Positions 1 to 29,592 of a stretch of 64,000 nucleotides of DNA are shown here, piece by piece. The position numbers and the translations under genes were made by a program. Origin of the DNA: Escherichia phage EJP2; the sequence record OQ411014.1, one strand, 5' to 3'. The first letter of the stretch is position 1, and each line of letters starts with the position of its first letter. Under the pieces are notes generated by a model, which was not told where the DNA came from, searched no databases, and worked only from the letters and a program-made list of their open reading frames with translations.

Positions 1-57
1 GCACAGTACTGAAAAAGGCGTATAATGTTTTACATCGAGAGGGGGAATACTTCTCCC
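1..57 (+). promoter_or_regulatory. early promoter (5'-truncated by window; -10 TATAAT 21-26) plus leader hairpin 41-57
   Basis: Same cassette as 13 later copies; stem GGGGGAA/TTCTCCC with one G-U pair. Confidence 0.5.
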
Positions 58-78
58 TGGTACATTAAGGAATAAAAA

Positions 79-225
79 ATGAAAGCATCAAAAAAACGTA
101 ATACCAAGAAATCATCTTCAACGTTCGCAGGTGTATTCCCTTTGCGTTTTGTGGATGAAGTAGTTTCCTACCCGCCGGGTCTTACTCCTGAGATTGTAGA
201 AAGTTTGCGTAAATCTCAAAAATAG
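79..225 (+). CDS. small basic early protein (48 aa)
   Basis: ATG 79 after RBS AAGGAA; TAG 223-225; not in ORF track (<60 aa); read directly. Confidence 0.45.
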   Translation: MKASKKRNTKKSSSTFAGVFPLRFVDEVVSYPPGLTPEIVESLRKSQK

Positions 226-228
226 TAC

Positions 229-288
229 TTGCATAGTACTGAAAAAAGCGTATACTGTTTTACATAGGGGGAGAAACAACTTCCCCCA
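229..288 (+). promoter_or_regulatory. early promoter + leader hairpin
   Basis: -35 TTGCAT 229-234, 16-nt spacer, -10 TATACT 251-256; hairpin GGGGGAG..CTTCCCCC ~266-288. Confidence 0.6.
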
Positions 289-309
289 CTAATTAAGAGA
301 GAAATAAAA

Positions 310-603
310 ATGGCTAAGTATTGCAGAGAGTGCGGCGGTTTGTGTGTAGTTGATGTTTTCGGTATTTCTAACCACATTTACGAAAACGGCGAAATCCATT
401 ACGTGTTAGACGGTGATCATGTAGCTATTCCTGAGCATGAAGAAGTGTTGACAAATGAGGAAGTTTATGATTTTTGTTATGATTATTACACTGATCACGG
501 AGAGTACCCTATGGAGTGCGAATTGTCAAACGGTTATGTACTTTCTTTCGATGAAATCATGAAAGAACTAACCGAAGACCAAAAGAAAGAAATCGAAAAA
601 TAG
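310..603 (+). CDS. hypothetical early protein, Cys-containing (97 aa)
   Basis: ORF track; RBS AAGAGAGA upstream; promoter cassette upstream. Confidence 0.65.
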   Translation: MAKYCRECGGLCVVDVFGISNHIYENGEIHYVLDGDHVAIPEHEEVLTNEEVYDFCYDYYTDHGEYPMECELSNGYVLSFDEIMKELTEDQKKEIEK

Positions 604-606
604 TAC

Positions 607-669
607 TTGCATAGTACTGAAAAAAGCGTATACTGTTTTACATAGGGCGGGGGAATAGTTCTCCCGCCT
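607..669 (+). promoter_or_regulatory. early promoter + leader hairpin
   Basis: -35 TTGCAT 607-612, -10 TATACT 629-634; hairpin GGCGGGGGAA..TTCTCCCGCC. Confidence 0.6.
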
Positions 670-689
670 GGTTAAGAGGAAGTAAAAAA

Positions 690-947
690 ATGGAACAACA
701 TACTCAATATCGTTTTAATGAATACGCGTTCTCTTATGTTGAAGATCATAAAGAACTGCCTGTTAATACTCCTACCCGTGGTAAAGTATATCGCGGTTAT
801 TCCTGGAATCATAGCAAAGATGGTTACACTCATCAAGTAACCGCAATGTACATAGGGGATGGCAACTGGATCAATCCTGATAATCCTGAGTCAATCCAGG
901 ACGTGGAAGCAATGCAATGGTGCGATTATATTGAATGCGTACACTAA
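690..947 (+). CDS. hypothetical early protein (85 aa)
   Basis: ORF track; RBS AAGAGGAAG; promoter cassette upstream. Confidence 0.65.
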   Translation: MEQHTQYRFNEYAFSYVEDHKELPVNTPTRGKVYRGYSWNHSKDGYTHQVTAMYIGDGNWINPDNPESIQDVEAMQWCDYIECVH

Positions 948-956
948 AAAATTAGT

Positions 957-1017
957 TTGACAGTACTGAATAATAGCGTATAATGTTTTACATAGAGAGC
1001 GGGAATAGTTCCCGCCT
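957..1017 (+). promoter_or_regulatory. early promoter + leader hairpin
   Basis: -35 TTGACA 957-962, -10 TATAAT 979-984; hairpin GAGCGGGAA..TTCCCGCCTC. Confidence 0.6.
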
Positions 1018-1037
1018 CATATTAAGGAATTAAAAAA

Positions 1038-1295
1038 ATGAAAGTACAAATTAATGCAACCTCCTGGGTATTACGTCGTGATTCCGAACTGGTACAAGAT
1101 ACTCCTACTACCCGCCGCTTTTTCGATGATCATGGTGTTGTGTATGAGCAAAATAAAGATCAATTAGAATATCATGAATCTATGGCAGTGGTTGATATTC
1201 CTTGCGAGACTGTACAGGATATTCAACAGTACTGCAAGAAGTACAACGCAAAAATTGAAATCCAAAATGAAACGGCATTGATTAGTTTTTTCTAA
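1038..1295 (+). CDS. hypothetical early protein (85 aa)
   Basis: ORF track; RBS TAAGGAAT; promoter upstream. Confidence 0.65.
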   Translation: MKVQINATSWVLRRDSELVQDTPTTRRFFDDHGVVYEQNKDQLEYHESMAVVDIPCETVQDIQQYCKKYNAKIEIQNETALISFF

Positions 1296-1305
1296 TAAAA
1301 AGTAC

Positions 1306-1367
1306 TTGCAATTAGTTTCCAATAGCGTATAATGTTTTATATCGAGAGCGGGAATGGTTCCCGCCTC
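1306..1367 (+). promoter_or_regulatory. early promoter + leader hairpin
   Basis: -35 TTGCAA 1306-1311, -10 TATAAT 1328-1333; hairpin GAGCGGGAA..TTCCCGCCTC. Confidence 0.6.
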
Positions 1368-1386
1368 ATATTAAGGAATTAAAATC

Positions 1387-1743
1387 ATGACTATCTCTAT
1401 CGCTCAATCCAACTTTGAAAACGAAATCATCTCTACCGCCCTGCGTATGGATGACGGCATTGCTCGTATCAATTATGGTTTCAATTCAGGCGGTAATGAA
1501 GCGTATCAGTACTTTACAACTGCTGATGGCGGTGTCCTGGGTATCAATACCGTAATCGTTAATATTCAAAACATCAACTTCAATGATCCAGATGATAGCC
1601 AGTACTACATCACTGGCGTAGAAGTGAACTATGAAGATGATTCATTAACTGATGATCACACTGGCGAGACGTTAGAGAGTGCATACGCAGAAGAAGAAGA
1701 CGACGACCGCCAGGACTACTTCCCGAACGGTTTACAAGATTAA
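1387..1743 (+). CDS. hypothetical early protein, acidic C-terminus (118 aa)
   Basis: ORF track; RBS TAAGGAAT; promoter upstream. Confidence 0.65.
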   Translation: MTISIAQSNFENEIISTALRMDDGIARINYGFNSGGNEAYQYFTTADGGVLGINTVIVNIQNINFNDPDDSQYYITGVEVNYEDDSLTDDHTGETLESAYAEEEDDDRQDYFPNGLQD

Positions 1744-1748
1744 CATAG

Positions 1749-1774
1749 TGGGGGCAATAGCTCCCATTTTTTTA
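1749..1774 (+). terminator. rho-independent terminator
   Basis: Hairpin TGGGGGC..GCTCCCA followed by T7 tract. Confidence 0.55.
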
Positions 1775-1918
1775 TTCTCGTAGTACTGAATTATAGATAC
1801 AATCCCGCACCCTATGGGTTAGAGACTTTCTCGTCTTGATGTAGTAATTATACAGTACTGTAATACTATGTCAAGCGTTTAAAGTACATTTATTTTAAAA
1901 AGTATTTGTAGAAAGTAC

Positions 1919-1946
1919 TTGCACAGTACTGATAAAAGCGTATAAT
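1919..1946 (+). promoter_or_regulatory. early promoter
   Basis: -35 TTGCAC 1919-1924, -10 TATAAT 1941-1946; unusually long (~85 nt) leader before ATG 2050. Confidence 0.55.
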
Positions 1947-2049
1947 GTATTACATCAAGACGGGGAAGACAAGTAGACATCCTGTAAGTCGTACGAAAAC
2001 CAGGACACGGATTGATAAACCTAACTACTTTAATATAAGGAATACTATC

Positions 2050-2646
2050 ATGGCTAAAAATATTGTTACTCTGAAATCTGCTTTAGAATCTCATAACATC
2101 GAATCACTCGCGGCAAAACTCGCTGATATGGCTGACCGTGACGGGATCAAAAAGATGGGCTTAACGTTTTCCCTGGCTGTTAAACGTGCTCAAGATATTA
2201 GTAAGGAGCGTGCAGTACTGCAAGCCAAATTGAAAGAAGAAGCAGCAGAACGCCGCCGTCAATCTCTTATCAGTACTGTAGCAGCACGAAACGAAGCTCG
2301 CACCGCTGAGATGGAAAAGGAACTGCAAGCCCGTAAAGAAGAAGCTGAGGCGATGATCCAGAATATGATTGAGACTATGGGCTTTGATCTTGAAGTCGCC
2401 CAGGAGATGGTAAACGTCGCTATGCAGAAGAAATATAATGACAACAGCAAATCATTTACTTTCAACCGTACAGCAGTTCACTTCAACGGCAAAACATATA
2501 ACATGGGCGTAACTGGTAACATGCCGGACGTTCTCAAAGAAGCCGTAGCGAATTCTGGCCTGTCACGTGCAGACTTTATCAGAGAGTACGCCATTGATAA
2601 AGACGATGCGGAGCGTATCATTGCCCTTAAAAATGGTGTGAACTGA
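2050..2646 (+). CDS. hypothetical protein, predicted coiled-coil (198 aa)
   Basis: Internal ATG 2050 with RBS AAGGAAT preferred; listed ORF start 1945 lies inside the -10 box. Confidence 0.6.
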   Translation: MAKNIVTLKSALESHNIESLAAKLADMADRDGIKKMGLTFSLAVKRAQDISKERAVLQAKLKEEAAERRRQSLISTVAARNEARTAEMEKELQARKEEAEAMIQNMIETMGFDLEVAQEMVNVAMQKKYNDNSKSFTFNRTAVHFNGKTYNMGVTGNMPDVLKEAVANSGLSRADFIREYAIDKDDAERIIALKNGVN

Positions 2647-2846
2647 TGCAAGTCCTAAGCTCAATCATCGCCCCAGGTAGTGCAAAGCGTATCACTACCA
2701 ACAAGGGATTGCATACAGTGATTCAAACCGATTGGATAGCTGTAATGATTGATTCTATCAGTACTGAATTGTATATGTATCACAGTACTGAGGGGAATAG
2801 ATTTGTAATACACAAAGGTAAAAATTATTTGGTTGATGTACTATAA
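2646..2846 (+). CDS. hypothetical protein (66 aa)
   Basis: ORF track; ATGA start/stop overlap with upstream gene. Confidence 0.45.
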   Translation: MQVLSSIIAPGSAKRITTNKGLHTVIQTDWIAVMIDSISTELYMYHSTEGNRFVIHKGKNYLVDVL

Positions 2847-2851
2847 ACTAC

Positions 2852-2911
2852 TTGCCAGTACTAAAGAATAGTGTATAATGTTTTACATAGAGCGGGGGAA
2901 CAGTTCTCCCG
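2852..2911 (+). promoter_or_regulatory. early promoter + leader hairpin
   Basis: -35 TTGCCA 2852-2857, -10 TATAAT 2874-2879; hairpin GCGGGGGAA..TTCTCCCGC. Confidence 0.55.
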
Positions 2912-2931
2912 CAGTTTAAAGGAAACAAAAC

Positions 2932-3120
2932 ATGTTACAACTGTCCGAAGTACTGGTTAAAGATCAATGGGGCAATCCTGGTAGTAATATCATTGTACGC
3001 GATAATAAAGCAACGTTTATCACTAATGAAGGGGCGTTGACACGTAGCATAAAGAATAAAGCCGTTACTATCAACAACGTTCGCTATCGTCTCGATTCTC
3101 ACCTTGTAACAGTACTGTAA
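2932..3120 (+). CDS. hypothetical early protein (62 aa)
   Basis: ORF track; RBS AAAGGAAAC. Confidence 0.6.
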   Translation: MLQLSEVLVKDQWGNPGSNIIVRDNKATFITNEGALTRSIKNKAVTINNVRYRLDSHLVTVL

Positions 3121-3131
3121 GGAGTATTACA

Positions 3132-3308
3132 ATGATTCACGTAGAATTAAGCACTATTAAAGAACTATTCTATAAACTCGGTCAGGCGGGGGAGTACCCT
3201 ACTAATGACACCGCCCGTTTGTTTAACTCCTTAGACAACTGGCAAAAAGGCGAACTATCTGAAGCCTGGAGACAAGGAAAGGAAGATCAAAAAGCACTTG
3301 CAAAGTAA
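3132..3308 (+). CDS. hypothetical small protein (58 aa)
   Basis: ATG 3132 after RBS AAGGAG; TAA 3306-3308; not in ORF track; read directly. Confidence 0.4.
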   Translation: MIHVELSTIKELFYKLGQAGEYPTNDTARLFNSLDNWQKGELSEAWRQGKEDQKALAK

Positions 3309-3362
3309 TCTGATTAATGTATAATGTTTTGCATAGGGGGAAACAACTTCCCCCACTAATTA
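3299..3362 (+). promoter_or_regulatory. early promoter + leader hairpin
   Basis: -35 TTGCAA 3299-3304, -10 TATAAT 3320-3325; hairpin GGGGGAAAC..TTCCCCC; overlaps 3' end of upstream small ORF. Confidence 0.55.
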
Positions 3363-3373
3363 AGGAATAAAAA

Positions 3374-3661
3374 ATGAAAGCTCAAGCCAAATACTTTGAA
3401 AACGTTTTTGATGGTCGTGATGCAGAATGTACCCGCCTGATCGCTGGTGGACTGGTTAAAGGTGCGGTAGTACTGGCAACGGACTTAAACAAAGTAAACA
3501 AGAATAATCCATTCCGTGAATTGTGTAAAGAGATGGAAACGATCACAGTACTGGAATCTCCTTTCAACGATAAGCGTACTGGTATTCCGTCAATGGTCGT
3601 GTACCATAAAGAAACTAATCAACAACGTTTGGTTAGTGCCAGGAACTGGATTGCAATGTAA
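3374..3661 (+). CDS. hypothetical early protein (95 aa)
   Basis: ORF track; RBS TAAGGAAT. Confidence 0.65.
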   Translation: MKAQAKYFENVFDGRDAECTRLIAGGLVKGAVVLATDLNKVNKNNPFRELCKEMETITVLESPFNDKRTGIPSMVVYHKETNQQRLVSARNWIAM

Positions 3662-3668
3662 AAAAGTA

Positions 3669-3730
3669 CTTGCATTGTAATCTGATTAATGTATAATGTT
3701 TTGCATAGGGGGAAACATCTTCCCCCACTA
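3669..3730 (+). promoter_or_regulatory. early promoter + leader hairpin
   Basis: -35 TTGCAT 3669-3674, -10 TATAAT 3691-3696; hairpin GGGGGAAAC..TTCCCCC. Confidence 0.6.
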
Positions 3731-3745
3731 ATTAAGGAAAGTAAA

Positions 3746-3904
3746 ATGAATAATTCAGCACAGTATCAACCAACGGAAAACATCGTAATCGGTAACGGCC
3801 TGGGTATGCATCGATTCAGTACTAACCAATCATACACTGAAAGAGCATTACGGGCTATGTGTATCAGTGCAAAACAGATTGCAATGTACTTCAAAAAGAA
3901 ATAA
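3746..3904 (+). CDS. hypothetical small protein (52 aa)
   Basis: Internal ATG 3746 after RBS TAAGGAAAG; listed ORF start 3689 lies inside the promoter. Confidence 0.5.
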   Translation: MNNSAQYQPTENIVIGNGLGMHRFSTNQSYTERALRAMCISAKQIAMYFKKK

Positions 3905-3950
3905 GAAAATAGGGGTTGACTTAGGTTAGCCCCTTTGGTATTATGTATTC

Positions 3951-4045
3951 ATTGAAACAACATAGCCCACAGGGTGCAGAGAAGTAAGTGTTTAATAATT
4001 AATTTCCGTGAGTAACTATCTGTCCAGCCAGGGGTGAACTATTTT
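3951..4045 (+). ncRNA. candidate small RNA, copy 1 of a paralogous pair (promoter -35 TTGACT 3916-3921, -10 TATTAT 3939-3944)
   Basis: No ORF; 33-nt block GAAACAACATAGCCCACAGGGTGCAGAGAAGTA and CGTGAGTAACTATCTG shared with copy at 7482-7590. Confidence 0.35.
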
Positions 4046-4125
4046 ATAATTACTATTGACATAATCAAATCAGTACTGTAATCTATACATATATTAACGC
4101 AATACCTAACCTAAAGGGCAAGACC

Positions 4126-4269
4126 ATGAACAATGAGAACGTATACAACAAAGTGCAATCTAAAATCAATTCTGAGCTAACCATCGCCCAACTTGACTTG
4201 ATTGACGAAATGTTATTCTCAAACCGTTCTTTGAAAGATATCATCAAAGCAGTAAAGGCGGCAGCATGA
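4126..4269 (+). CDS. hypothetical small protein (47 aa)
   Basis: ATG 4126, TGA 4267-4269, ATGA overlap with next gene; read directly. Confidence 0.4.
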   Translation: MNNENVYNKVQSKINSELTIAQLDLIDEMLFSNRSLKDIIKAVKAAA

Positions 4270-4583
4270 AAAAGTTATTACTGTCTTTATTACTGGTTAG
4301 TACTTCCTCGATGGCTGAGAATAACATTACTAAAGCTCTCAAGGAAGATCCCTGGCCTGTTTACAAGTGCACTCTGTTAGTAAATGATAAGGAAGTACTG
4401 ACCACTACTAACAAGGAAGAATATAAATCCTATTCAATGCACCCGCGAAACATGCACGTTTATACTTATCCCATCAGTGAAGCGGCGGCCTTTCGCCTGG
4501 TGGTGTCAGATAATCAAGCCACTGGCATCATGTATCACAACAACGAGATAGTAAGCACATATAGCGGAACGTGCACTAAGTAA
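4266..4583 (+). CDS. putative secreted protein with N-terminal signal peptide (105 aa)
   Basis: N-terminus MKKLLLSLLLVSTSSMA is signal-peptide-like; ORF track. Confidence 0.6.
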   Translation: MKKLLLSLLLVSTSSMAENNITKALKEDPWPVYKCTLLVNDKEVLTTTNKEEYKSYSMHPRNMHVYTYPISEAAAFRLVVSDNQATGIMYHNNEIVSTYSGTCTK

Positions 4584-4588
4584 ATGTA

Positions 4589-4614
4589 AAGCCTCCAATG
4601 TTGGGGGCTTTTTT
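4589..4614 (+). terminator. rho-independent terminator
   Basis: Hairpin AAGCCTCCAA..TTGGGGGCTT followed by TTTTTT. Confidence 0.65.
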
Positions 4615-4666
4615 GTATGTATATCAGTACTATAAAAGTATTTTTAAAATACTTTGCAAAAAGTAC

Positions 4667-4730
4667 TTGCACTGTACTGATAAAAGCGTATAATGTTTTA
4701 CATCGAGAGGGGGAAACGGTTCAACCTCAG
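4667..4730 (+). promoter_or_regulatory. early promoter + leader hairpin
   Basis: -35 TTGCAC 4667-4672, -10 TATAAT 4689-4694; imperfect leader hairpin. Confidence 0.55.
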
Positions 4731-4747
4731 AAATTAAGGAAAACAAC

Positions 4748-4858
4748 ATGAAAGCTCAAGCGACCCTGAATAGTACTATCAAAGCTAACAAAATCAATCG
4801 TCTTTACCTTGGTCTGGCTGTTGTCCTGGTAATCGCATTAAGCCTGAATATCGGTTAA
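4748..4858 (+). CDS. small hydrophobic peptide, predicted single TM helix (36 aa)
   Basis: ATG 4748 after RBS TAAGGAAA; TAA 4856-4858; read directly. Confidence 0.35.
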   Translation: MKAQATLNSTIKANKINRLYLGLAVVLVIALSLNIG

Positions 4859-4879
4859 TAAAAAACTTTCGCAGTACTG

Positions 4880-4907
4880 TTGACAACCTCTCCAGTACTG
4901 CTATAAT
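4880..4907 (+). promoter_or_regulatory. sigma70-like promoter
   Basis: -35 TTGACA 4880-4885, 16-nt spacer, -10 TATAAT 4902-4907. Confidence 0.55.
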
Positions 4908-4943
4908 AAATGTACTTTCAAAACATATTAAGGAATTAAAATC

Positions 4944-5276
4944 ATGACTACTTCTAACATCGAAATCATCAACACCGTAGCAATCGAAACTGTTCTGTCC
5001 TTTGATGTTCAAGCAAAACGCTGGACCGATACTTATGGCAATACTTACTTCTCTGTTGTAGTATCGGCAGAACAAGAAAAAGAATATGTAGAACTTGGTG
5101 CGGTTAGTTTCGCGTACGGTTACGATGAAGCATACGCCTACAAAGCAGTTGAAATCATCAAGGAAACCGTAACAGGTATTACATCAGAAGAGTCATCCCT
5201 GTGGCGTTTAATGGATGACCTTAAGTTATCTTGTAACACTAAAGCGACTAATGTCAAGCGTAAAAAAGATTTGTAA
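4944..5276 (+). CDS. hypothetical protein (110 aa)
   Basis: ORF track; RBS TAAGGAAT. Confidence 0.65.
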   Translation: MTTSNIEIINTVAIETVLSFDVQAKRWTDTYGNTYFSVVVSAEQEKEYVELGAVSFAYGYDEAYAYKAVEIIKETVTGITSEESSLWRLMDDLKLSCNTKATNVKRKKDL

Positions 5277-5357
5277 TTGACTTGATTTATTGTGCTGGTG
5301 GTCCTATACTATCAGCACGCATTAAAACTAATTAAACAAACCGAAGGATATACCCAG

Positions 5358-5654
5358 ATGATCAAATATTTCAATACTCGTACCGAAGCCCGTGCTTTTG
5401 CTGCTGCTAACAACACCAAGGTAATTGATAACACCACCGCAGCGGAAAAGGGTAAACGCTGGGAAGTCCAAGTGATGGACGCGATGGACAAGGTAAACGA
5501 AGTACTAGAAATGGTTCAAGAAGAAGTCCCAGACCTCAAACCATTACCAGTACTGAAAGCTCCTGCGGTCATCGTACGCAACCATAAAGAGTACAAGAAA
5601 GATCGCAAAGGTAACACCGTCACAGTATACAGCAAACGTAAACAAGTACTATAA
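5358..5654 (+). CDS. hypothetical protein (98 aa)
   Basis: Internal ATG 5358 with RBS GAAGGA preferred over listed start 5292. Confidence 0.5.
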   Translation: MIKYFNTRTEARAFAAANNTKVIDNTTAAEKGKRWEVQVMDAMDKVNEVLEMVQEEVPDLKPLPVLKAPAVIVRNHKEYKKDRKGNTVTVYSKRKQVL

Positions 5655-5700
5655 CGAAAACTGGGGGGAGGATATCCCCCACTATTAAAGGAATGTAATC

Positions 5701-5940
5701 ATGGCAGCTAAAAAACCATTAGTGTATCATTCAGTTATTATTAATAACAAACGTTACAAAATGTCCGAAGGTCTAGCACAGGTAACTAATGTTCAATTGA
5801 TCTTGGACAAGTTAACCCCAGAAGAGGCCCAGATGACGGTAATACAAGCTAAGAAGATGCGTCCAGGGTATTCAAATCATCCAGTTATATCCATGCTGTT
5901 AAACCTTATCATAGTTGGAGCAAGTAAGAAGATATGCTAA
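5701..5940 (+). CDS. hypothetical protein (79 aa)
   Basis: ORF track; RBS AAAGGAAT; hairpin GGGGGGAGGATATCCCCCC upstream. Confidence 0.55.
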   Translation: MAAKKPLVYHSVIINNKRYKMSEGLAQVTNVQLILDKLTPEEAQMTVIQAKKMRPGYSNHPVISMLLNLIIVGASKKIC

Positions 5941-6104
5941 ACGTCTACCAGGAAACAGTAAAGACATTAAAGGGGTTGAATGCATCACGTGATGTTATCT
6001 ATTTTGTTTCACAAAACGCCTTTGAGTTGCAATCTATGCACGACACAGGAAAGACATTAGAGGAAATAGTACAGTACTGCGTAGATGAGGCTAACAAGCA
6101 TTAA
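5934..6104 (+). CDS. hypothetical small protein (56 aa)
   Basis: ATG 5934 overlapping upstream stop; TAA 6102-6104; read directly. Confidence 0.35.
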   Translation: MLNVYQETVKTLKGLNASRDVIYFVSQNAFELQSMHDTGKTLEEIVQYCVDEANKH

Positions 6105-6202
6105 AACGCTGCTGGTGGTGTGGTAGTACTATAAAGTGAATAACCTCGTTAGAGAGCGTTACAGGACGTTTTAGAGTACTATAAAAATATATCAAAAAGA
6201 TG

Positions 6203-6265
6203 TAGACATTAGAACTTAATAGCGTATAATGTTTTACATCGAGAGGGGGAATACTTCTTCCTCAG
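6203..6265 (+). promoter_or_regulatory. early promoter + leader hairpin
   Basis: -35 TAGACA 6203-6208, -10 TATAAT 6225-6230; hairpin AGGGGGAATACTTCTTCCTC. Confidence 0.5.
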
Positions 6266-6284
6266 TATTAAAAAGGTTTATAAC

Positions 6285-6512
6285 ATGACTACTCTTAACG
6301 CACTTCAAATCAGTACTGCCGCTAAAACTCTGGGCGAAATCATGCAAGCTCAATATGTTGTTACTCGTTTTAGTACTAAAGAATGCATTATGATGGTTTC
6401 TAAAGATAGCACCGCGAAACTGGTAATCGAGAATGGTATTGCGAAAGTATATTCTACGCGTGACAATACTGTGCAAAATACTGTTCAAGTACTTGTTGAC
6501 ATCGAAGCATAA
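6285..6512 (+). CDS. hypothetical early protein (75 aa)
   Basis: ORF track; promoter cassette upstream. Confidence 0.6.
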   Translation: MTTLNALQISTAAKTLGEIMQAQYVVTRFSTKECIMMVSKDSTAKLVIENGIAKVYSTRDNTVQNTVQVLVDIEA

Positions 6513-6560
6513 CAGTACTATAATCTCTTTTATCAACTACACGGAATAGGAAACATCATC

Positions 6561-7154
6561 ATGCGTTTTTACAATAAATTTTTACGTTCTCTGGATGGCC
6601 TGACTAATGACCAAATGATCCAGGCGTGCAAAGATGCAGGCTTAGAGATGGTAGGGCGTGGTTCTTCGCGTGTAGTGTATGCTATCAATGACAAGCTCGT
6701 TATTAAGATCGCATTAAACAGTGTAGGCATTACTCAGAACAAAAATGAAACAAAGATCCATTTTTGTATTAAAAACGAATTCATCGGCCTGTCAAAGTAC
6801 TTTGCACGTGTTTACCCTAACCTGGCTGACCGCAAAGATATTACATTAGTAATGGAACGAGTAGAAACCAAGTTTAAAGGCCGTATTAAGTATTCTACCG
6901 CGTTAACTGTCGTTCGCTTTTCTCCTGCCAGGGCGAAAGTATGTGATATTCATAAGGCCGCTTTAAAGCACTTACAGGCGGTTAGTACTCTGGACGAGTA
7001 TATGAATACTTGCAACGCTACCGACCTGCACGCAAAGAATATAGGCATTAACGACAAAGGACAAGTAAAGATCCTCGATTATGGTTTTAGTCCTGTACTG
7101 CGTAACAAGTATTTTCACGGTCGCATAAAAAATAAAAAAGAAGTACTTGCATAG
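6561..7154 (+). CDS. putative protein kinase-like protein (197 aa)
   Basis: Gly-rich loop GRGSSRVVY, VIKI lysine strand, catalytic-loop-like DLHAKNIGIN and DFG-like KILDYGF; by eye only. Confidence 0.5.
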   Translation: MRFYNKFLRSLDGLTNDQMIQACKDAGLEMVGRGSSRVVYAINDKLVIKIALNSVGITQNKNETKIHFCIKNEFIGLSKYFARVYPNLADRKDITLVMERVETKFKGRIKYSTALTVVRFSPARAKVCDIHKAALKHLQAVSTLDEYMNTCNATDLHAKNIGINDKGQVKILDYGFSPVLRNKYFHGRIKNKKEVLA

Positions 7155-7210
7155 TACTGAGATTCGCGTATAATGTTTTATATCGAGAGGGGGAATACTT
7201 CTCCCTCAGT
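7147..7210 (+). promoter_or_regulatory. early promoter + leader hairpin
   Basis: -35 TTGCAT 7147-7152, -10 TATAAT 7169-7174; hairpin GAGGGGGAATACTTCTCCCTC. Confidence 0.6.
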
Positions 7211-7226
7211 TAAGGAGTAAAACATT

Positions 7227-7427
7227 ATGTCTATTGCTATCGCACTGGTTGAAGTACTGAAAGAAGCTAAAGCCAACCTTATCGATGTACAGATTAAGGA
7301 ATTGCAAAATGGCTTAATCGGCTGCACTTGTAGTACTGGTTGCGGTTCTGATTATAGAGAATTCGAATCATTAGAATCATTGGTTCGTTATCTTACAATC
7401 ATAGTGGACGATTGGAAACTAATCTAA
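7227..7427 (+). CDS. hypothetical Cys-rich small protein (66 aa)
   Basis: ORF track; RBS TAAGGAGT; motif GCTCSTGCG. Confidence 0.6.
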   Translation: MSIAIALVEVLKEAKANLIDVQIKELQNGLIGCTCSTGCGSDYREFESLESLVRYLTIIVDDWKLI

Positions 7428-7481
7428 AAAAATATTAAAAAAGGAGTTGACTTCGGTTAGCTCCTTTAGTACTATATACGC

Positions 7482-7590
7482 ATCGAAACAATATAGCCCA
7501 CAGGGTGCAGAGAAGTATCTATAAGATAGTTAATAACGGTGAGTAACTATCTGCTGGTGGAAGTACTACCTGTACGCCAGGGAGTGAAAT
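7482..7590 (+). ncRNA. candidate small RNA, copy 2 of paralogous pair (promoter -35 TTGACT 7446-7451, -10 TACTAT 7470-7475)
   Basis: No ORF; shares conserved blocks with 3951-4045 (one mismatch in 33 nt). Confidence 0.35.
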
Positions 7591-7652
7591 ATATTTGCAA
7601 AACAATATCAGTACTGATATACTGCAAGCCTTAACTAATGAGGAATACTATC

Positions 7653-7925
7653 ATGGCTTATAACGATATGATGAAGGCACAACACTACAACTTAAAGCGT
7701 ACAGACAAAGCACCGAAACCACGTTGGACAATGAAAAAGAAAGCTCAGACTATCTTTGAAGAGGAAACAGTACTGCAAGCTATTGAACAAATCAAAGTAA
7801 ACAAAAAGTTAGTTCAAAAAGTATCTAATGTTATTTGTTCTACTCTCTTCAAGGACTACTCCAAGGAGTACCAGGAGAAGATCAAGAGTATTGCACAAGA
7901 AATAAGAATACAAAAACTTTATTAA
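7653..7925 (+). CDS. hypothetical basic protein (90 aa)
   Basis: ATG 7653 with RBS GAGGAA preferred over listed 7638. Confidence 0.6.
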   Translation: MAYNDMMKAQHYNLKRTDKAPKPRWTMKKKAQTIFEEETVLQAIEQIKVNKKLVQKVSNVICSTLFKDYSKEYQEKIKSIAQEIRIQKLY

Positions 7926-7930
7926 AGTAC

Positions 7931-7995
7931 TTGCATAGTACTGAAAAAAGCGTATACTGTTTTACATAGAGCGGGGGAATAGTTCTCCCGCATAG
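7931..7995 (+). promoter_or_regulatory. early promoter + leader hairpin
   Basis: -35 TTGCAT 7931-7936, -10 TATACT 7953-7958; hairpin GCGGGGGAA..TTCTCCCGC. Confidence 0.6.
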
Positions 7996-8011
7996 TTTAA
8001 GGAGTTCCACC

Positions 8012-8344
8012 ATGTCTACATCAATCGCTATCGTTAATGCTTCCATTCGTACCAATCATTCATCTGTATGTATTGGTGGCCTCGACCGTAAAGTGGAATA
8101 CTCTTTCATCATTGCCGAGACTATCAACGGTGCACGCTATATCTTAAATGATAGTGAAGCAAATCATTACTACGTTGCGAAAGATACTGGCTTTAAACGT
8201 ATCCCTGCCGATGTAGTATACGCAAAGATGAATAAGCTGGTAGACCGTATCAACGCGAAAGGTACTATAGATTTACTGTACTGGACTGAAACTACTCCGG
8301 CTTATGGTTCTCATCGTTACCTGAATCCAGGTATTAAAATGTAA
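8012..8344 (+). CDS. hypothetical early protein (110 aa)
   Basis: ORF track; RBS TAAGGAGT. Confidence 0.65.
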   Translation: MSTSIAIVNASIRTNHSSVCIGGLDRKVEYSFIIAETINGARYILNDSEANHYYVAKDTGFKRIPADVVYAKMNKLVDRINAKGTIDLLYWTETTPAYGSHRYLNPGIKM

Positions 8345-8351
8345 AAAGTAC

Positions 8352-8415
8352 TTGCATAGTACTGCGATTCAGGTATAATGTTTTACATAGAGCGGGGGAA
8401 TGGTTCTCCCGCCTA
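8352..8415 (+). promoter_or_regulatory. early promoter + leader hairpin
   Basis: -35 TTGCAT 8352-8357, -10 TATAAT 8374-8379; hairpin GCGGGGGAA..TTCTCCCGCC. Confidence 0.6.
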
Positions 8416-8433
8416 CTTTAAGGAGTACTGATT

Positions 8434-8832
8434 ATGTTCACTATCAATTCTTATGCTGATGTTCTGGTCCTGGCTAAAACTTTCGGCAACGCTGCCCTGG
8501 ATTATGCTTTACAAAATGGTACTATCCAACCGGAACAATGCCGCCTCATTGGTAGCTGTAAACGTTGGGCGGTGTCCAATACTATTGCACTGGAAAACTT
8601 CAACGATGGCAACAATGAATATTCTGTTGATGCAGTATTCGAAGCCGTTGATCTCGGCGGTATCTATAACACTAACCTGAATGATGTGCGTATCGTTCGC
8701 ACTGGGTTCGGTGCTTATGATTTATCTATCCGTGAAGCTATGGACACCGGATACATTAGCAAAGATGTACTGGCTCACATCATGCAGTTGTGTGTGGAAC
8801 GTAACGAAGCACGTACTATCTTAGGGCTGTAA
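8434..8832 (+). CDS. hypothetical early protein (132 aa)
   Basis: ORF track; RBS AAGGAGT. Confidence 0.65.
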   Translation: MFTINSYADVLVLAKTFGNAALDYALQNGTIQPEQCRLIGSCKRWAVSNTIALENFNDGNNEYSVDAVFEAVDLGGIYNTNLNDVRIVRTGFGAYDLSIREAMDTGYISKDVLAHIMQLCVERNEARTILGL

Positions 8833-8856
8833 GCACAACACATCACCAAACATCAT

Positions 8857-8876
8857 AGGCCGCTCTCTAGCGGCCT
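8857..8876 (+). terminator. GC hairpin, possible terminator or processing site
   Basis: AGGCCGCT-CTCT-AGCGGCCT perfect stem; no U-tract. Confidence 0.3.
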
Positions 8877-8895
8877 TAACTATAAGGGTAATACA

Positions 8896-9108
8896 ATGAC
8901 AGCGTATAGAGTAGAGGGTTGCTTAGGCGTGACTGTAGGGCGTGTCAGTACTGTACAGGATGCAACTGATGTAGTACTGAAGCAGATCCCTATTAGTCCT
9001 AAGACAGTAAAGTTATTAGCTGGTAGACTTGAACGGGCCAGGGTAGGGGCTAGGGTACACGTGGACTATGGGGGAACGGGCTGTACAGTTTACGTAGAAG
9101 AGGAATAG
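8896..9108 (+). CDS. hypothetical protein, GC-rich relative to neighbours (70 aa)
   Basis: ORF track; RBS TAAGGGTAA; Gly/Arg/Val-rich. Confidence 0.5.
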   Translation: MTAYRVEGCLGVTVGRVSTVQDATDVVLKQIPISPKTVKLLAGRLERARVGARVHVDYGGTGCTVYVEEE

Positions 9109-9298
9109 TTACGGGTGTAAATTATACCAAGCTCAGATTATAAGTACTGTAATAATAAAATGCAGTACTTTTAATTTGTACAGGTAATCCCTTAACATTT
9201 TCAAATAAAAAAATCAAGACCTATGCAAAATATTTTGTTGCACTAAAGGGTAGTAACCCTTAGCGGCTTTGAATACTCCCTATAAGAAAAAAAGGTAT

Positions 9299-9326
9299 TT
9301 GACTTTTTATCTGAATCGGATATAAT
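9299..9326 (+). promoter_or_regulatory. sigma70-like promoter heading the paralog array
   Basis: -35 TTGACT 9299-9304, 16-nt spacer, -10 TATAAT 9321-9326. Confidence 0.55.
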
Positions 9327-9372
9327 CTGTTCTATATTATATTTCACTTGTATTTTATCTCATGGAGTCCCT

Positions 9373-9858
9373 ATGAATAATGATTTGTCGTATATAGAAA
9401 CCTTAAACTTAGCCAATGACTTACTCTTAATTCTTAGGGCATTTGATGCGGGTAAGCTGGATGGTTATAAGGATATCACTAAGCAGCTTATAGGTGATAC
9501 TACAACGGAATACTTTCTTGCAGGTGAACGTGTATGTTACGTCACTAATAAAGCATCCAATATATGGTCAAACGTAAGTCTCACTTCTGGTCGGATTCGA
9601 TACAATCAATTATATCCTCACTACCCTATAAAGAACAACGGCGAGATTACTAAGTGCGTCCCTGGGGATAAAATCTTTGAAGTGTCCGAAGAACAATTTT
9701 TCTATAACACACTCACACTCGATACTAGCTTACCAACGAGTGCACTTATCTTTGGAGTACTGTCTGGACACAAGTTTGAACACAACGCTGTGGGATTATA
9801 CTTCGACCTAGAGTATGTGGATATACTGGTTCTGTATGCTAAAGAGGTGTTGGCATGA
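9373..9858 (+). CDS. FQ-motif paralog family protein
   Basis: Motif VSEEQFFYNTL; RBS GGAG. Confidence 0.7.
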   Translation: MNNDLSYIETLNLANDLLLILRAFDAGKLDGYKDITKQLIGDTTTEYFLAGERVCYVTNKASNIWSNVSLTSGRIRYNQLYPHYPIKNNGEITKCVPGDKIFEVSEEQFFYNTLTLDTSLPTSALIFGVLSGHKFEHNAVGLYFDLEYVDILVLYAKEVLA

Positions 9859-10358
9859 GACTACGAGTAGAAGATTACTCTTATGATGAAGTTCTAAAGT
9901 TAGCCCACGATATACGTTTGATGATGAGTGCCTTTGATACTGGTCGGCTAGATGGTTATAAAGATATTCGCAGAGAAGACGTTGATGAAAAGACTGTGGA
10001 GTACTATATTGGGAACGATAGGGTCGCACATCTAAACAGATATGAATCAACTCTATGGAGTATGCTTATGCAGAAACATGGAACTATCAAACATAACTCT
10101 TTCGCTGCACACACTATGTTTGTTATCGACGCTGTGGTTCATGAACGTAAGCTAGATGATCCCATGTTTACTGTTTCGGAAGAACAATTCTTTTACAACA
10201 CTTTACAATATCCCAACAACACTGTTCCCGCTAGAGGTATTATTTTTGGTGTACTGAATGAACATACGTTTGATTACAATGAAATTACATTGAAATTCAA
10301 ATTACACCTAGATAAGATGTTAGCTTACTCACAAGAGGTTATGCATAATGCAATGTAA
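9855..10358 (+). CDS. FQ-motif paralog family protein
   Basis: Motif TVSEEQFFYNTL; ATGA overlap with upstream stop. Confidence 0.7.
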   Translation: MRLRVEDYSYDEVLKLAHDIRLMMSAFDTGRLDGYKDIRREDVDEKTVEYYIGNDRVAHLNRYESTLWSMLMQKHGTIKHNSFAAHTMFVIDAVVHERKLDDPMFTVSEEQFFYNTLQYPNNTVPARGIIFGVLNEHTFDYNEITLKFKLHLDKMLAYSQEVMHNAM

Positions 10359-16810: not shown

Positions 16811-17179
16811 ATGTTAGATCATGATTTTCGGTTGCACACACATATAGTCCAGGGTGTATATCATTTTTATTGTAACGTACATAAAGGTGATACCAGTCAT
16901 AGAAGGCACGTATATATTTCTTATCTTAATGGTGCGTTTTCGTTCATTAGTTATGAGAATTATAAGTACGGTTCTCGGACAGATCATCCTATGCAGGATT
17001 ATACAGTACTGGATGAGGGTGGGAGATTTCAGGCAGAATTAGTGCTTGATGCAAATTCTGTTCTTACATTAGATGAGATTATTTTCATTCAGAATCTAAT
17101 GAAAGAGTTCTCGGTGCGTGCACAAAATTCTGAAGAATTTGAACACGATTACTATTTCAATATAGGAATTCCATCATGA
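16811..17179 (+). CDS. FQ-motif paralog, 120-aa subfamily copy 1
   Basis: Motif EGGRFQAELV; ATG 16811 preferred over GTG 16802; GC-rich leader upstream. Confidence 0.6.
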   Translation: MLDHDFRLHTHIVQGVYHFYCNVHKGDTSHRRHVYISYLNGAFSFISYENYKYGSRTDHPMQDYTVLDEGGRFQAELVLDANSVLTLDEIIFIQNLMKEFSVRAQNSEEFEHDYYFNIGIPS

Positions 17180-17535
17180 CATATGATTTTTTCTTACATG
17201 CTTACAAAGGAAAAGGTATCTATCAGTACTATTGCAATGTCAATAAAAATGACATAAAATATAATCTGAACGAATTCATCTTTTACGTACAAGGTGTGTT
17301 TAAGTTTGTGGACTACAGTAAGGATATTCAACATGATAGAAGTGATATGTTAGATTATTCAGTACTGAATGAAGCTGAACTCTTCCAAGCAGAAGTAGCT
17401 TATAATTTGGAGTACATTCTTCCATTGCACGAAATTGCTGCTATCCAGAGAACAATAAAAGAGTTTGCCAGTACTGTAAATGTATCAGATGACACTAAAA
17501 AAGAGTACTATTTCAATATAGGAATTCCATCATGA
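17176..17535 (+). CDS. FQ-motif paralog, 120-aa subfamily copy 2
   Basis: Motif EAELFQAEVAYN; N-terminus MTYDFFLHA; ATGA overlap. Confidence 0.7.
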   Translation: MTYDFFLHAYKGKGIYQYYCNVNKNDIKYNLNEFIFYVQGVFKFVDYSKDIQHDRSDMLDYSVLNEAELFQAEVAYNLEYILPLHEIAAIQRTIKEFASTVNVSDDTKKEYYFNIGIPS

Positions 17536-17888
17536 CATATGATTTTTTCTTACACGCTCATAAACACAAAGGTTTTTATCAGTACTATTGTAATGTTCAT
17601 AAAAATGATACCATGCACAGTATGGACCATTATATCAATTACTCAGAAGGGAAGTTTCAATTTCTGGACTACGGTATTGTATCTAAACCATATCGTGATA
17701 TGATAGATTATTCAGTACTGACAGAGGCTGAACTATTCCAAGCAGAAGTAGCTTATAACAGTGAGTACATTCTTACGTTGGATGAAGTTGTTGCTATCCA
17801 GACTATAATGAAAGAATATGTCCAGAATGTACCTGATCCAGCGGAAACAAATGATCAGTACTTTTTCAATATAGGGAATCCAGAATGA
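17532..17888 (+). CDS. FQ-motif paralog, 120-aa subfamily copy 3
   Basis: Motif EAELFQAEVAYN; junction DNA identical to previous copy. Confidence 0.7.
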   Translation: MTYDFFLHAHKHKGFYQYYCNVHKNDTMHSMDHYINYSEGKFQFLDYGIVSKPYRDMIDYSVLTEAELFQAEVAYNSEYILTLDEVVAIQTIMKEYVQNVPDPAETNDQYFFNIGNPE

Positions 17889-18253
17889 CAGAGAATAGTT
17901 TTGATTTTTCATTGTTCGTATCAGTGTATGAAGAAATATATTGCAATCTCATCAAAGGTGATATTGAGCATAACAAGTCAACATTCATCAAGTACAAAAA
18001 ATCTACATCTACATCTGCATTTACATTTAGATTTGTAGATTACGATAATAATCAAAGAATGCAACCTATACAGGATTATACAGTACTGAATGAGGCTGAA
18101 AGATTTCAGGCAGCGTTGGTATATGAAGAAAAGTATCTCGTTACTATGGATGAAATGATTGCTATCCAACAAGAAATAAAAAATCACGTAAAAGAGTACG
18201 GTATGAGTTCAGTACTGGGTAAGAGATTACATTTCAATATAGATAAGGAATAA
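17885..18253 (+). CDS. FQ-motif paralog, 120-aa subfamily copy 4
   Basis: Motif EAERFQAALVY. Confidence 0.7.
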   Translation: MTENSFDFSLFVSVYEEIYCNLIKGDIEHNKSTFIKYKKSTSTSAFTFRFVDYDNNQRMQPIQDYTVLNEAERFQAALVYEEKYLVTMDEMIAIQQEIKNHVKEYGMSSVLGKRLHFNIDKE

Positions 18254-21258: not shown

Positions 21259-21287
21259 TTGACGGGTGTTGTGCTTTCGGGTACAAT
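21259..21287 (+). promoter_or_regulatory. sigma70-like promoter with palindromic spacer (operator-like)
   Basis: -35 TTGACG, 17 nt, -10 TACAAT; inverted repeat CGGGTGTTGT..ACAATACCCG spans -35 to -10. Confidence 0.5.
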
Positions 21288-21320
21288 ACCCGTTATTCGT
21301 TTATAGAGAGGAATAAAATC

Positions 21321-27065: not shown

Positions 27066-27094
27066 TTGACAAGCATTGTATCTTCGGGTACAAT
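27066..27094 (+). promoter_or_regulatory. sigma70-like promoter with palindromic spacer (operator-like)
   Basis: -35 TTGACA, 17 nt, -10 TACAAT; perfect inverted repeat AAGCATTGTA..TACAATGCTT. Confidence 0.55.
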
Positions 27095-27117
27095 GCTTTT
27101 TTTATAGGAGAAATACT

Positions 27118-29529: not shown

Positions 29530-29558
29530 TTGACAAGTGTTGTATCTTAGGGTACAAT
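29530..29558 (+). promoter_or_regulatory. sigma70-like promoter with palindromic spacer (operator-like)
   Basis: -35 TTGACA, 17 nt, -10 TACAAT; near-identical to 27066 promoter. Confidence 0.55.
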
Positions 29559-29592
29559 GCTTTTAATTAATAATTAACGAGGATTTCTTATA

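Follow-up and report, generated by a model that had tools for sequence, protein, structure and literature searches.

Positions 1-8430 of a 64,000-nucleotide stretch of Escherichia phage EJP2 (sequence record OQ411014.1; the whole of this stretch is called the window below) carry 14 promoter cassettes set before small open reading frames (ORFs), and the leader that follows the promoter typically begins with a short G/C-rich hairpin. This leader hairpin is conserved as a structure through compensatory changes and is thus under selection. We read the units as modular early-expression cassettes similar to the little-known promoter-early stem-loops (PeSLs) of T4-type phages, in which the hairpin most likely caps and stabilises the early mRNA. 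The function is inferred from sequence, and we hold this reading with a confidence a little better than even.

The core of the unit, GTATAATGTTTTACAT, has 14 matches in the window at one mismatch or fewer, every one of them on the + strand and within 1-8430 (between 20 and 8388). The G of GTATAAT stands at 20, 250, 628, 978, 1327, 1940, 2873, 3319, 3691, 4688, 6224, 7168, 7952 and 8373, and the units are named here by this position or by their order. When 3 mismatches were allowed, 16 matches were found against 2.55 expected, the two extra ones having 3 mismatches each and being unrelated. A covariance model, R1, built from the 13 hairpin-bearing window units, returned the same 14 units from the window and none past 8436, leaving the remaining 55 kb empty. 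The core search and the covariance model both bear out the count of 14 cassettes and their location in 1-8430 as given in an earlier note on this DNA; the description of the cassettes as near-identical does not stand, as identity between the promoter halves of the window units ranges from 50% to 100%. The window covers only the downstream part of the array, because a metagenome contig in ENA (ERZ28599204 scaffold_463, here L075), which is 99.4% identical to window positions 1-10124 and reaches 9.7 kb further upstream, holds units there as well: an R1 search found at least 33 units over 18 kb, 19 of them upstream of the window start.

Little of this region matches deposited phages. In megablast, 1-8430 gave patchy matches only (at most 12% coverage, about 84% identity), so that a nucleotide match to any deposited phage covers only 12% of the array region. 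These were to Asteriusvirus jumbo phages of Escherichia (PBECO4, 121Q, G17, phAPEC6 and others) and their Salmonella relatives; the rest of the 64-kb window gave even weaker matches, to RaK2-like jumbo phages of Erwinia, Salmonella, Cronobacter and Serratia. Nine of the ten array ORFs tested had no Pfam match. An Rfam cmscan of 1-9000 (E <=1) produced nothing relevant, only a sub-threshold Phe_leader match on the opposite strand at 4582-4704. An exact 16-mer pattern scan of IMG/VR gave 71 loci, mostly chance matches in A/T-rich contigs, and only the contigs of about 350 kb were useful.

The order of elements in a unit is an A-rich stretch, AGTAC-TTGCAT, a 16-nt spacer, TATAAT or TATACT, GTTTTAC-A-T (GTTTTACAT), the hairpin, a linker, a Shine-Dalgarno sequence (SD) and the ATG. 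At the upstream end, the stop codon of the previous ORF overlaps the A-rich/AGTACT stretch. The -35 element is TTGCAT or a variant of it (TTGCAA, TTGACA, TTGCCA, TAGACA). The linker from the hairpin to the SD is 6-12 nt long and A/U-rich, and all 14 units have an SD of the form AAGGA(G) or AAGAG at 5-9 nt from the ATG. The sequence is consistent with the sigma-70-type promoter (TTGCAT-like -35, TATAAT/TATACT -10) and the AAGGA(G) ribosome-binding site that had been proposed. TTGCAT matches the -35 consensus at 3 of 6 positions and consensus-based scoring under-called the window units; a loose promoter scan of the region showed no enrichment over shuffles (28 found, 25.4 expected). The case for the promoters therefore rests on the conservation and position of the repeat, not on consensus counts. 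The cassettes, and two modules in which the hairpin, SD and ATG occur without a promoter, are the following.

1..81, + strand: cassette 1, cut by the window edge, -35 missing; -10 TATAAT 21-26; predicted +1 A34; hairpin 40-58 (8 bp, loop UAC, -10.4 kcal/mol); SD AAGGA; ATG 79
221..312, + strand: cassette 2; -35 TTGCAT 229-234; -10 TATACT 251-256; predicted +1 ~264; type-B hairpin 267-287 (-12.2 kcal/mol); ATG 310
599..692, + strand: cassette 3; -35 607-612; -10 TATACT 629-634; predicted +1 ~642; 11-bp hairpin 645-669 (-18.8 kcal/mol, z -4.2); ATG 690
949..1040, + strand: cassette 4; -35 TTGACA 957-962; -10 TATAAT 979-984; predicted +1 ~992; hairpin 995-1018 (GAG-A-GCGGGAA/UUCCCGCCUC, -15.3 kcal/mol, z -4.1); ATG 1038
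1298..1389, + strand: cassette 5; -35 TTGCAA 1306-1311; -10 1328-1333; predicted +1 ~1341; hairpin 1344-1367; ATG 1387
1911..2052, + strand: cassette 6; -35 1919-1924; -10 1941-1946; 97-nt leader without the short hairpin; ATG 2050
2844..2934, + strand: cassette 7; -35 TTGCCA 2852-2857; -10 2874-2879; predicted +1 ~2887; hairpin 2892-2912 (-15.2 kcal/mol, z -4.2); ATG 2932
3290..3376, + strand: cassette 8; -35 TTGCAA 3298-3303; -10 3320-3325; predicted +1 ~3333; type-B hairpin 3336-3354 (-12.8 kcal/mol); ATG 3374
3662..3748, + strand: cassette 9, 87% identical to cassette 8 (family D11); -35 TTGCAT 3670-3675; -10 3692-3697; predicted +1 ~3705; type-B hairpin 3708-3726 (-12.8 kcal/mol); ATG 3746
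4659..4750, + strand: cassette 10; -35 TTGCAC 4667-4672; -10 4689-4694; predicted +1 ~4702; degenerate hairpin 4707-4728 (3' arm UUCAACC, internal loops, -9.0 kcal/mol); ATG 4748
6195..6287, + strand: cassette 11; -35 TAGACA 6203-6208; -10 6225-6230; predicted +1 ~6238; hairpin 6243-6263 (-10.8 kcal/mol); ATG 6285
7139..7229, + strand: cassette 12; -35 TTGCAT 7147-7152; -10 7169-7174; predicted +1 ~7182; hairpin 7187-7207 (-13.6 kcal/mol); SD AAGGAG; ATG 7227
7923..8014, + strand: cassette 13; -35 7931-7936; -10 TATACT 7953-7958; predicted +1 ~7966; hairpin 7971-7991 (-15.6 kcal/mol); SD AAGGAG; ATG 8012
8344..8436, + strand: cassette 14; -35 8352-8357; -10 8374-8379; predicted +1 ~8387; hairpin 8392-8412 (extended pairing 8388-8415, -16.4 kcal/mol); SD AAGGAG; ATG 8434
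5662..5703, + strand: promoterless module of hairpin, SD and ATG; hairpin 5662-5681 (-12.5 kcal/mol); ATG 5701; stop of the upstream ORF at 5654
8857..8898, + strand: second promoterless module of hairpin, SD and ATG; hairpin 8857-8876 (-14.4 kcal/mol, z -3.4); ATG 8896

A clean G/C-rich hairpin of 7-11 bp is present in 12 of the 14 window units, with energies from -10.4 to -18.8 kcal/mol and z-scores against dinucleotide shuffles from -1.1 to -4.2. The claim that every cassette carries one holds except for unit 4688, whose hairpin is degenerate with a broken 3' arm, and unit 1940, which belongs to another class with a long, conserved leader. Type A has the form GGGAA-NNN-UUCYCC with a 3-nt loop (10 copies, 4688 included), and type B the form GGGGGAA-ACAAC-UUCCCCC (3 copies). 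Most type-A stems contain a G·U pair.

The geometry of the leader was measured in cassettes of the window and of the relatives, 121 of which, window units included, were placed in an alignment fitted to the structure (A2). The stem-loop lies 13-20 nt downstream of the -10 and has a stem of 7-10 bp and a loop of 3-5 nt, or of 3-7 nt over the different lineages. The distance from the end of the stem to the ATG is 16-22 nt with a mode of 19, and in both promoterless modules the hairpin is likewise set about 19 nt from the ATG. No minimum-free-energy fold has the SD paired. As a rule, E. coli RNA polymerase favours a start 7-8 nt past the -10, at a purine that has a pyrimidine before it. The start site was predicted from the conserved pyrimidine-purine-T context after the -10: the -2 to +2 context is ACAT, GCAT or ATAT in 115 of the 121 cassettes, 7-9 nt past the -10. 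The predicted 5' tail before the stem is then 0-7 nt, with modes of 3 and 5, and is at most 3 nt in 51 of 96 cassettes and 4-7 nt in the other 45. In the general layout of a unit the hairpin opens 1-6 nt past the predicted start.

None of the 12 leader hairpins passed a scan for a T-tail (at least 5 T in 8 nt). Real T-tailed terminators occur in the same region, at 1747-1768 and 4588-4611, which argues that the leader hairpins are not terminators. The intergenic hairpins past 8436 are ordinary T-tailed terminators. Two further candidates were ruled out, an RNase III site because the stems (7-11 bp) are too short, and a lambda-type nut/boxB element for want of a boxA and of GNRA-like pentaloops.

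In the window units alone the covariation is modest. Double changes are seen at 2 of 9 pairs (A-U/C-G/G-C and G-C/C-G), 85.6% of the cells are paired compared with 79.2% after shuffling, and the observed covariation score was reached by 0 of 500 shuffles. In A2, compensatory changes occur at all 9 stem pairs. The number of doubly changed cells is 97 as compared with 25.4 in the shuffled alignments, and 86.9% of the cells are paired; shuffling lowers this share to 74.5%, and sliding the partners to 52-79%. Since A2 was fitted to the structure and the cassettes are paralogous, tests that do not depend on the alignment were added. A hidden Markov model (HMM) of the promoter half, which holds no hairpin information, found 68 promoters, of which 94% are followed by a fold of <= -8 kcal/mol in the first 42 transcribed nt; the corresponding value for random 42-mers from the same loci is 16%. 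Swapping the 3' arm among 73 distinct hairpins changed the mean energy from -11.7 kcal/mol for the native hairpins to -7.9 kcal/mol for the chimeras, a loss of 3.8 kcal/mol, and the best of 200 permutations reached -8.45. Divergent stems keep their pairing, as in GGGUAAGC/GCUUACCC, GACAGGAGA/UCUCUUGUC, AGCUAG/CUAGCU, GGCGGCA/UGCCGCC and GGGGCG/CGCCCC. The view that compensatory changes point to a selected leader hairpin, put forward in the earlier note, is thus upheld by the nine covarying pairs, the arm swap and the promoter-only HMM test, and the covariation exceeds a shuffled null modestly in the window and strongly in the 121 cassettes.

The two strands do not behave alike. A strand-symmetric, energy-free zipper count of the transition mismatches inside the stems gave 36 G·U against 11 A·C (about 3:1), and the mean fold energy is -11.7 kcal/mol for the sense strand and -10.3 kcal/mol for the antisense strand. 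The excess of G·U over A·C and the stabler sense folds favour selection on the sense transcript, as supportive rather than decisive evidence.

A distant BLAST search with one cassette gave 436 places in 74 phage records. The matched groups are Asteriusvirus (6-20 places per genome), the group of Salmonella Munch and Klebsiella fENko-Kae01, and the ~150-kb phAPEC8-like Phapecoctavirus; the last was unexpected, since this genus is unrelated to the RaK2-like jumbo phages. In G17 and in the Phapecoctavirus UP17, most of the ~90-nt gaps between small hypothetical ORFs hold a sigma-70-type promoter with a G/C-rich hairpin and then an SD behind it, and promoterless hairpins are found in UP17 and 121Q too. 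The ARNold-based annotation of G17 labels some of the equivalent hairpins as terminators, which we think is wrong for the promoter-proximal ones. Four records labelled 'Campylobacter phage' (MG065645, MG065650, MG065656 and MG065689; 146-151 kb) show the same cassette and match pattern as coliphage Phapecoctavirus and may be mislabelled or contaminant coliphages.

The homologous arrays also bear on the timing of expression. The fENko-Kae01 array lies inside an annotated 19.7-kb direct terminal repeat, and the match in vB_Ec-M-J is likewise within annotated 'Direct Terminal Repeats'. In the RaK2-like phage CBB, RpoD-like promoters were predicted before short ORFs (PMC5259590), and the related phage PA5oct depends on the host RNA polymerase (PMC7318152); neither of these papers mentions a leader hairpin. 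The label 'early', already given to the cassettes, is supported indirectly by the terminal-repeat position of the homologous arrays, together with the promoters of CBB and the host-polymerase dependence of PA5oct.

The promoter half and the leader half of a unit vary independently, with no correlation between their identities among 13 window units (r = 0.04). The promoter halves of units 250, 628 and 7952 are 100% identical, and unit 250 has the other hairpin type, with a leader half only about 50% identical. Where the window is homologous to G17, edges of the blocks of homology fall within cassettes, at 20, 233, 1296, 7168 and 7987, the last being inside the hairpin of cassette 13. Unit 7952 precedes the ORF at 8012, whose orthologue in G17 has a cassette of Phapecoctavirus type before it. 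Unit 1327 and a cassette of UP17 (L073, 12095) agree at 43 of 45 nt between the -10 and the end of the hairpin, as counted from the two sequences. The comparison of G17 with 121Q revealed two indels in which a small ORF between two cassettes in G17 corresponds to a single chimeric cassette in 121Q, and the crossover of the clearest one lies between the spacer and the -10. A third event is the replacement of an ORF between two cassettes. Units of ~90 bp, repeated dozens of times, would act as sites of homologous recombination, and recombination at them would shuffle early ORFans within and between co-infecting phage lineages, as proposed for PeSLs. The earlier note overlooked this recombination-module behaviour, as well as the upstream continuation of the array, the sharing with other genera and the parallel to PeSLs.

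PeSLs are known from the T4-type phages RB49/phi1, PST/T4 and nt-1/KVP40 (Arbiol et al. 2010, PMC2839356; Comeau et al. 2014, PMC4122927), where they border ORFans in hyperplastic regions and modules are shuffled through them (PMC2839356, PMC4122927). Like the cassettes described here, they are composites of ~70-100 bp: A/T-rich DNA with the upstream stop codon comes first, then an early promoter of sigma-70-like type, and the 3' end holds an SD and a start codon. A stem-loop of the form G(n)-loop-C(n), often containing G-T pairs, adjoins the promoter, as in 12 of the 14 window units; the elements cluster before small ORFans in plastic regions, as is the case here; and the junctions of indels and replacements fall inside the repeats and leave one chimeric cassette, as between G17 and 121Q. 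The position of the stem-loop is different. Here it is always downstream of the -10 and of the predicted start, hence within the predicted transcript, and ends ~19 nt from the ATG. In RB49/phi1, where it has been read as a terminator, its usual place is between or over the hexamers, with a minor subclass downstream of the -10 (PMC2839356); in PST and nt-1, where it was also read as a terminator, it is found upstream of the promoter (PMC4122927). No U-tract follows the hairpins of the window. The carriers differ as well, being RaK2-like jumbo phages and Phapecoctavirus rather than strict T4-like phages, and a distant blastn search with the cassette returned no RB49-type phage, only Asteriusvirus, Munch-like jumbo phages and Phapecoctavirus. 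We would file the cassettes as an unreported variant of the PeSL kind and not as a member by homology. The RpoD-like promoters predicted for CBB, and also reported for GAP32, come from the same clade and share with the cassettes a place before early genes at or near the direct terminal repeat, a sigma-70 consensus and an A/T-rich upstream element; the CBB paper, however, describes no leader hairpin ('stem-loop' and 'hairpin' have 0 occurrences each), cassette mosaicism or cross-genus sharing (PMC5259590).

Elsewhere in the window, at 21259-21295, 27066-27100 and 29530-29564, there are three copies of a different element, TTGACA-(hairpin)-TACAAT, in which a 12-16 bp hairpin covers the spacer and the -10, and a T-run, an SD and a start codon come after it. 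With its stem-loop between the hexamers, this element has the classic layout of a PeSL.

What, then, would the leader hairpin do? Each small ORF in the array of this RaK2/Asteriusvirus-like jumbo phage would have its own host sigma-70-type promoter, and the host RNA polymerase would start at the conserved purine, which would place the hairpin at the extreme 5' end of the primary transcript. There the hairpin would act as a 5'-terminal stabiliser, limiting the access of RppH and of the 5' sensor of RNase E, and would keep the downstream ribosome-binding site single-stranded. In read-through transcripts it would serve as a barrier to 3' exonucleases. Hairpins of the ompA type at the 5' terminus protect E. 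coli mRNAs from 5'-end-dependent decay; these stabiliser stem-loops were reportedly described by Emory, Bouvet and Belasco in 1992. The leaders resemble them in having a stable hairpin a few nt from the predicted 5' end, with a single-stranded A/U-rich segment and then the ribosome-binding site behind it. They differ from them in that the position of the 5' end is only predicted here, and in that the element is repeated dozens of times within a promoter cassette. We prefer the stabiliser reading because the predicted 5' tail is short and because such hairpins are known to protect E. coli mRNAs.

A number of observations weigh against this reading. The place of the hairpin in the transcript depends on the predicted start site, and with this start about half of the cassettes leave 4-7 unpaired nt at the 5' end, a length that is said, from the ompA work, to be at or beyond the limit of classic 5'-terminal stabilisers, whose hairpin stands some 2-4 nt or less from the end of the transcript. 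The promoterless modules keep the spacing to the ATG, which ties the hairpin to the ribosome-binding site and not to the 5' end. Two consensus promoters in the same region, at 4880-4907 and 6496-6524 (TTGACA, spacers of 16 and 17 nt, TATAAT), have short leaders without a hairpin, so the hairpin is not required for expression. The shuffle statistics treat the cassettes as more independent than they are, since they are paralogous and many of them were inherited as copies. The model-fitted columns of A2 show no asymmetry between G·U and A·C (63 vs 69), a null count that is probably due to type-B or shifted stems being out of register. Strains that are 97.5-99.4% identical (L075-L078) show no cassette-flanked indels, and their differences are not enriched in the cassettes, which make up 21% of the length and hold 42 of 285 differences. 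Since RNase E has little difficulty in scanning past simple stem-loops (PMC9943677), internal sites would gain no protection from the hairpin. The idea that the hairpin blocks the scanning of RNase E from the 5' end was dropped, because simple stem-loops orthogonal to the path are bypassed (PMC9943677). As a separate observation, a hairpin-less leader class (AUCAACUAC...) matching that of the two consensus promoters recurs in G17 and fENko-Kae01.

The main rival of the stabiliser reading is a role in the context of translation, which we regard as possible but rather unlikely. The hairpin would be part of the ribosome-binding site, as an insulator or enhancer of initiation. Its end ~19 nt before the ATG would coincide with the 5' edge of the 30S footprint, and with the G-/C-rich sequence locked away the linker and the SD would stay open in transcripts from the unit's own promoter and in read-through transcripts alike. 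The tight hairpin-to-ATG distance, its maintenance in the two promoterless modules of the window and in the promoterless examples of UP17 and 121Q, and the unpaired SD all speak for such a role. The distance from promoter to hairpin, however, is equally constrained, and leaders without a hairpin in the same arrays have similar SDs; the role is moreover compatible with a stabiliser rather than exclusive of it. The remaining roles, as terminator, protein operator or DNA-level element, are less likely. As a terminator or attenuator, the function proposed for PeSLs, the hairpin would dampen upstream transcription and leave each gene mainly on its own promoter. With an intergenic G/C-rich stem of 7-11 bp and a loop of 3-5 nt it does look like an intrinsic terminator, and some homologues in G17 are so annotated by the ARNold-based procedure; most ORF pairs have no other terminator between them, and a cloned PeSL stem-loop of RB49/phi1 cut the expression of a downstream lacZ as strongly as rrnB T1 (PMC2839356). 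We nevertheless consider termination improbable: the T-tract is missing from all 12 hairpins while true T-tailed terminators are present elsewhere in the region, and since the hairpin follows its own promoter and stands 19 nt ahead of the next ATG, termination there would also cut short that promoter's transcripts ~30 nt in. The tight spacing to the ATG would be left unexplained as well.

As an RNA operator, the hairpin together with the conserved 5' AUAG/AUCGAG or the GAA-NNN-UUC apex would be the target of an RNA-binding protein or a nuclease, from the phage or the host, and the early regulon would be switched post-transcriptionally, like the early messages of T4 by RegA or RegB. Dozens of co-regulated genes do share one leader, the apex GGGAA-NNN-UUCCC and the 5' AUAG/AUCGAG are conserved beyond the needs of pairing, and the arms are strongly polarised into purine and pyrimidine strands (GC 465 vs CG 33). 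This polarity could also stem from descent via G·U intermediates, however, and the stems, loops and apex sequences vary widely between lineages, which argues against a sequence-specific reader. No candidate protein has been put forward, and we give an operator slightly less credence than a terminator. A bolder proposal takes the hairpin as the handle of a portable post-transcriptional regulon, in which a structure-specific factor of the phage or the host would time or protect at least 33 terminal-repeat early genes, and the unit as mobile between RaK2-like jumbo phages and Phapecoctavirus via PeSL-type mini-circle exchange in co-infection; we think it no likelier than termination. An action at the level of DNA is very improbable. 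The inverted repeat would then form a cruciform or be a hot spot of recombination, or it would be a hairpin promoter of the N4 type, read by a phage polymerase, with the start downstream of the hairpin. Stems of 7-9 bp with 3-nt loops resemble the early promoter hairpins of N4, and recombination junctions are found in or near cassettes. A G·T on the coding strand, however, is an A·C mismatch on the template strand, and G·U outnumbers A·C in the stems, contrary to the perfect short hairpin extruded from the template strand, for a virion RNA polymerase of the phage, that an N4-type promoter calls for; the loops here run from 3 to 7 nt. A good sigma-70 promoter lies at a fixed distance upstream of the hairpin, the crossover of the clearest indel is in the promoter spacer and not in the hairpin, and the related PA5oct needs its host's RNA polymerase (PMC7318152).

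Several other features of the window and of the DNA upstream of it were recorded. Unit 1940 represents a second leader class (window 1954-2049), a structured RNA of ~65-75 nt behind the same promoter, which also occurs in L075 near 938-1040, 4657-4760 and 7171-7270, in G17 (L072) near 5434, 8451 and 15424, and in 121Q. It has a closing stem AUCAR/YUGAU, conserved AAGUAG and ACGAAAA, and a covarying CCUG/CAGG vs CCAG/CUGG. The leader of unit 1940 taken alone shows no excess stability (z +1.06), and is conserved in relatives nonetheless. Another promoter comes directly after this class in G17 and 121Q, so the class may represent a small RNA instead of a leader. A 128-nt element is present in two copies, 81% identical, at 3895-4022 and 7426-7553, with the promoter TTGACT-N17-TATTAT/TACTAT inside a 10-12 bp hairpin, followed by the conserved AUAGCCCACAGGGUGCAGAGAAGUA. 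It is kept in an ORF-free gap of G17 (L072 21267-21456) and is a candidate non-coding RNA gene.

AGTACT, a palindrome that mostly takes the form C-AGTACT-G, has 301 sites in the window compared with 23.6 expected, and most cassettes hold two copies that overlap the -35 and the spacer. It is 13-23x over-represented in the window phage (also in L075) and in all its RaK2-like relatives (L072, L074, L067, L022, L001 and L002), in coding and non-coding DNA, and under-represented in UP17 (0.5x expected). It looks like a clade-specific genome-wide motif. The hexamer AAGCTT has 0 sites in the 64 kb against 21 expected, and CCATGG, CAGCTG, AGGCCT, AGCGCT and ACCGGT are absent too; the missing palindromic hexamers suggest restriction-site avoidance.

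Among the genes, the sole ORF of the array with a domain match (6561-7154) encodes a protein-kinase-like product of 197 aa (Pkinase, E = 5.7e-6, below the gathering score). An ORF of fENko-Kae01 (L074 16233-16823), also of 197 aa, is annotated as a putative protein kinase, the likeness being one of annotation and length. About 150-400 nt upstream of the window start, L075 9279-9539 is an ORF for a DksA/TraR-type zinc-finger protein (PF01258), a possible early modulator of the host RNA polymerase. At 16985-18181 there are four tandem copies of ~355 nt with 60-76% mutual identity (families D3, D4 and D6), probably tandemly duplicated small genes.

On the practical side, the covariance model flags early regions and terminal repeats in new jumbo-phage assemblies, the work corrects annotations in which leader hairpins were called terminators, and the units, judged by their sequence, are candidates for compact, strong and insulated expression parts for E. 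coli. The early genes of RaK2-like phages are almost all of unknown function, and their expression has so far been guessed from promoter motifs. Here dozens of early genes are found to share one self-contained expression unit with a structurally selected transcribed hairpin, which gives a testable hypothesis of how early phage mRNA would survive while the RNA decay machinery of the host is intact. Gene gain and loss bounded by cassettes is seen directly, and near-identical cassettes occur in unrelated genera. PeSLs had been described only in T4-like phages, and the idea now extends to jumbo phages and phAPEC8-like phages.

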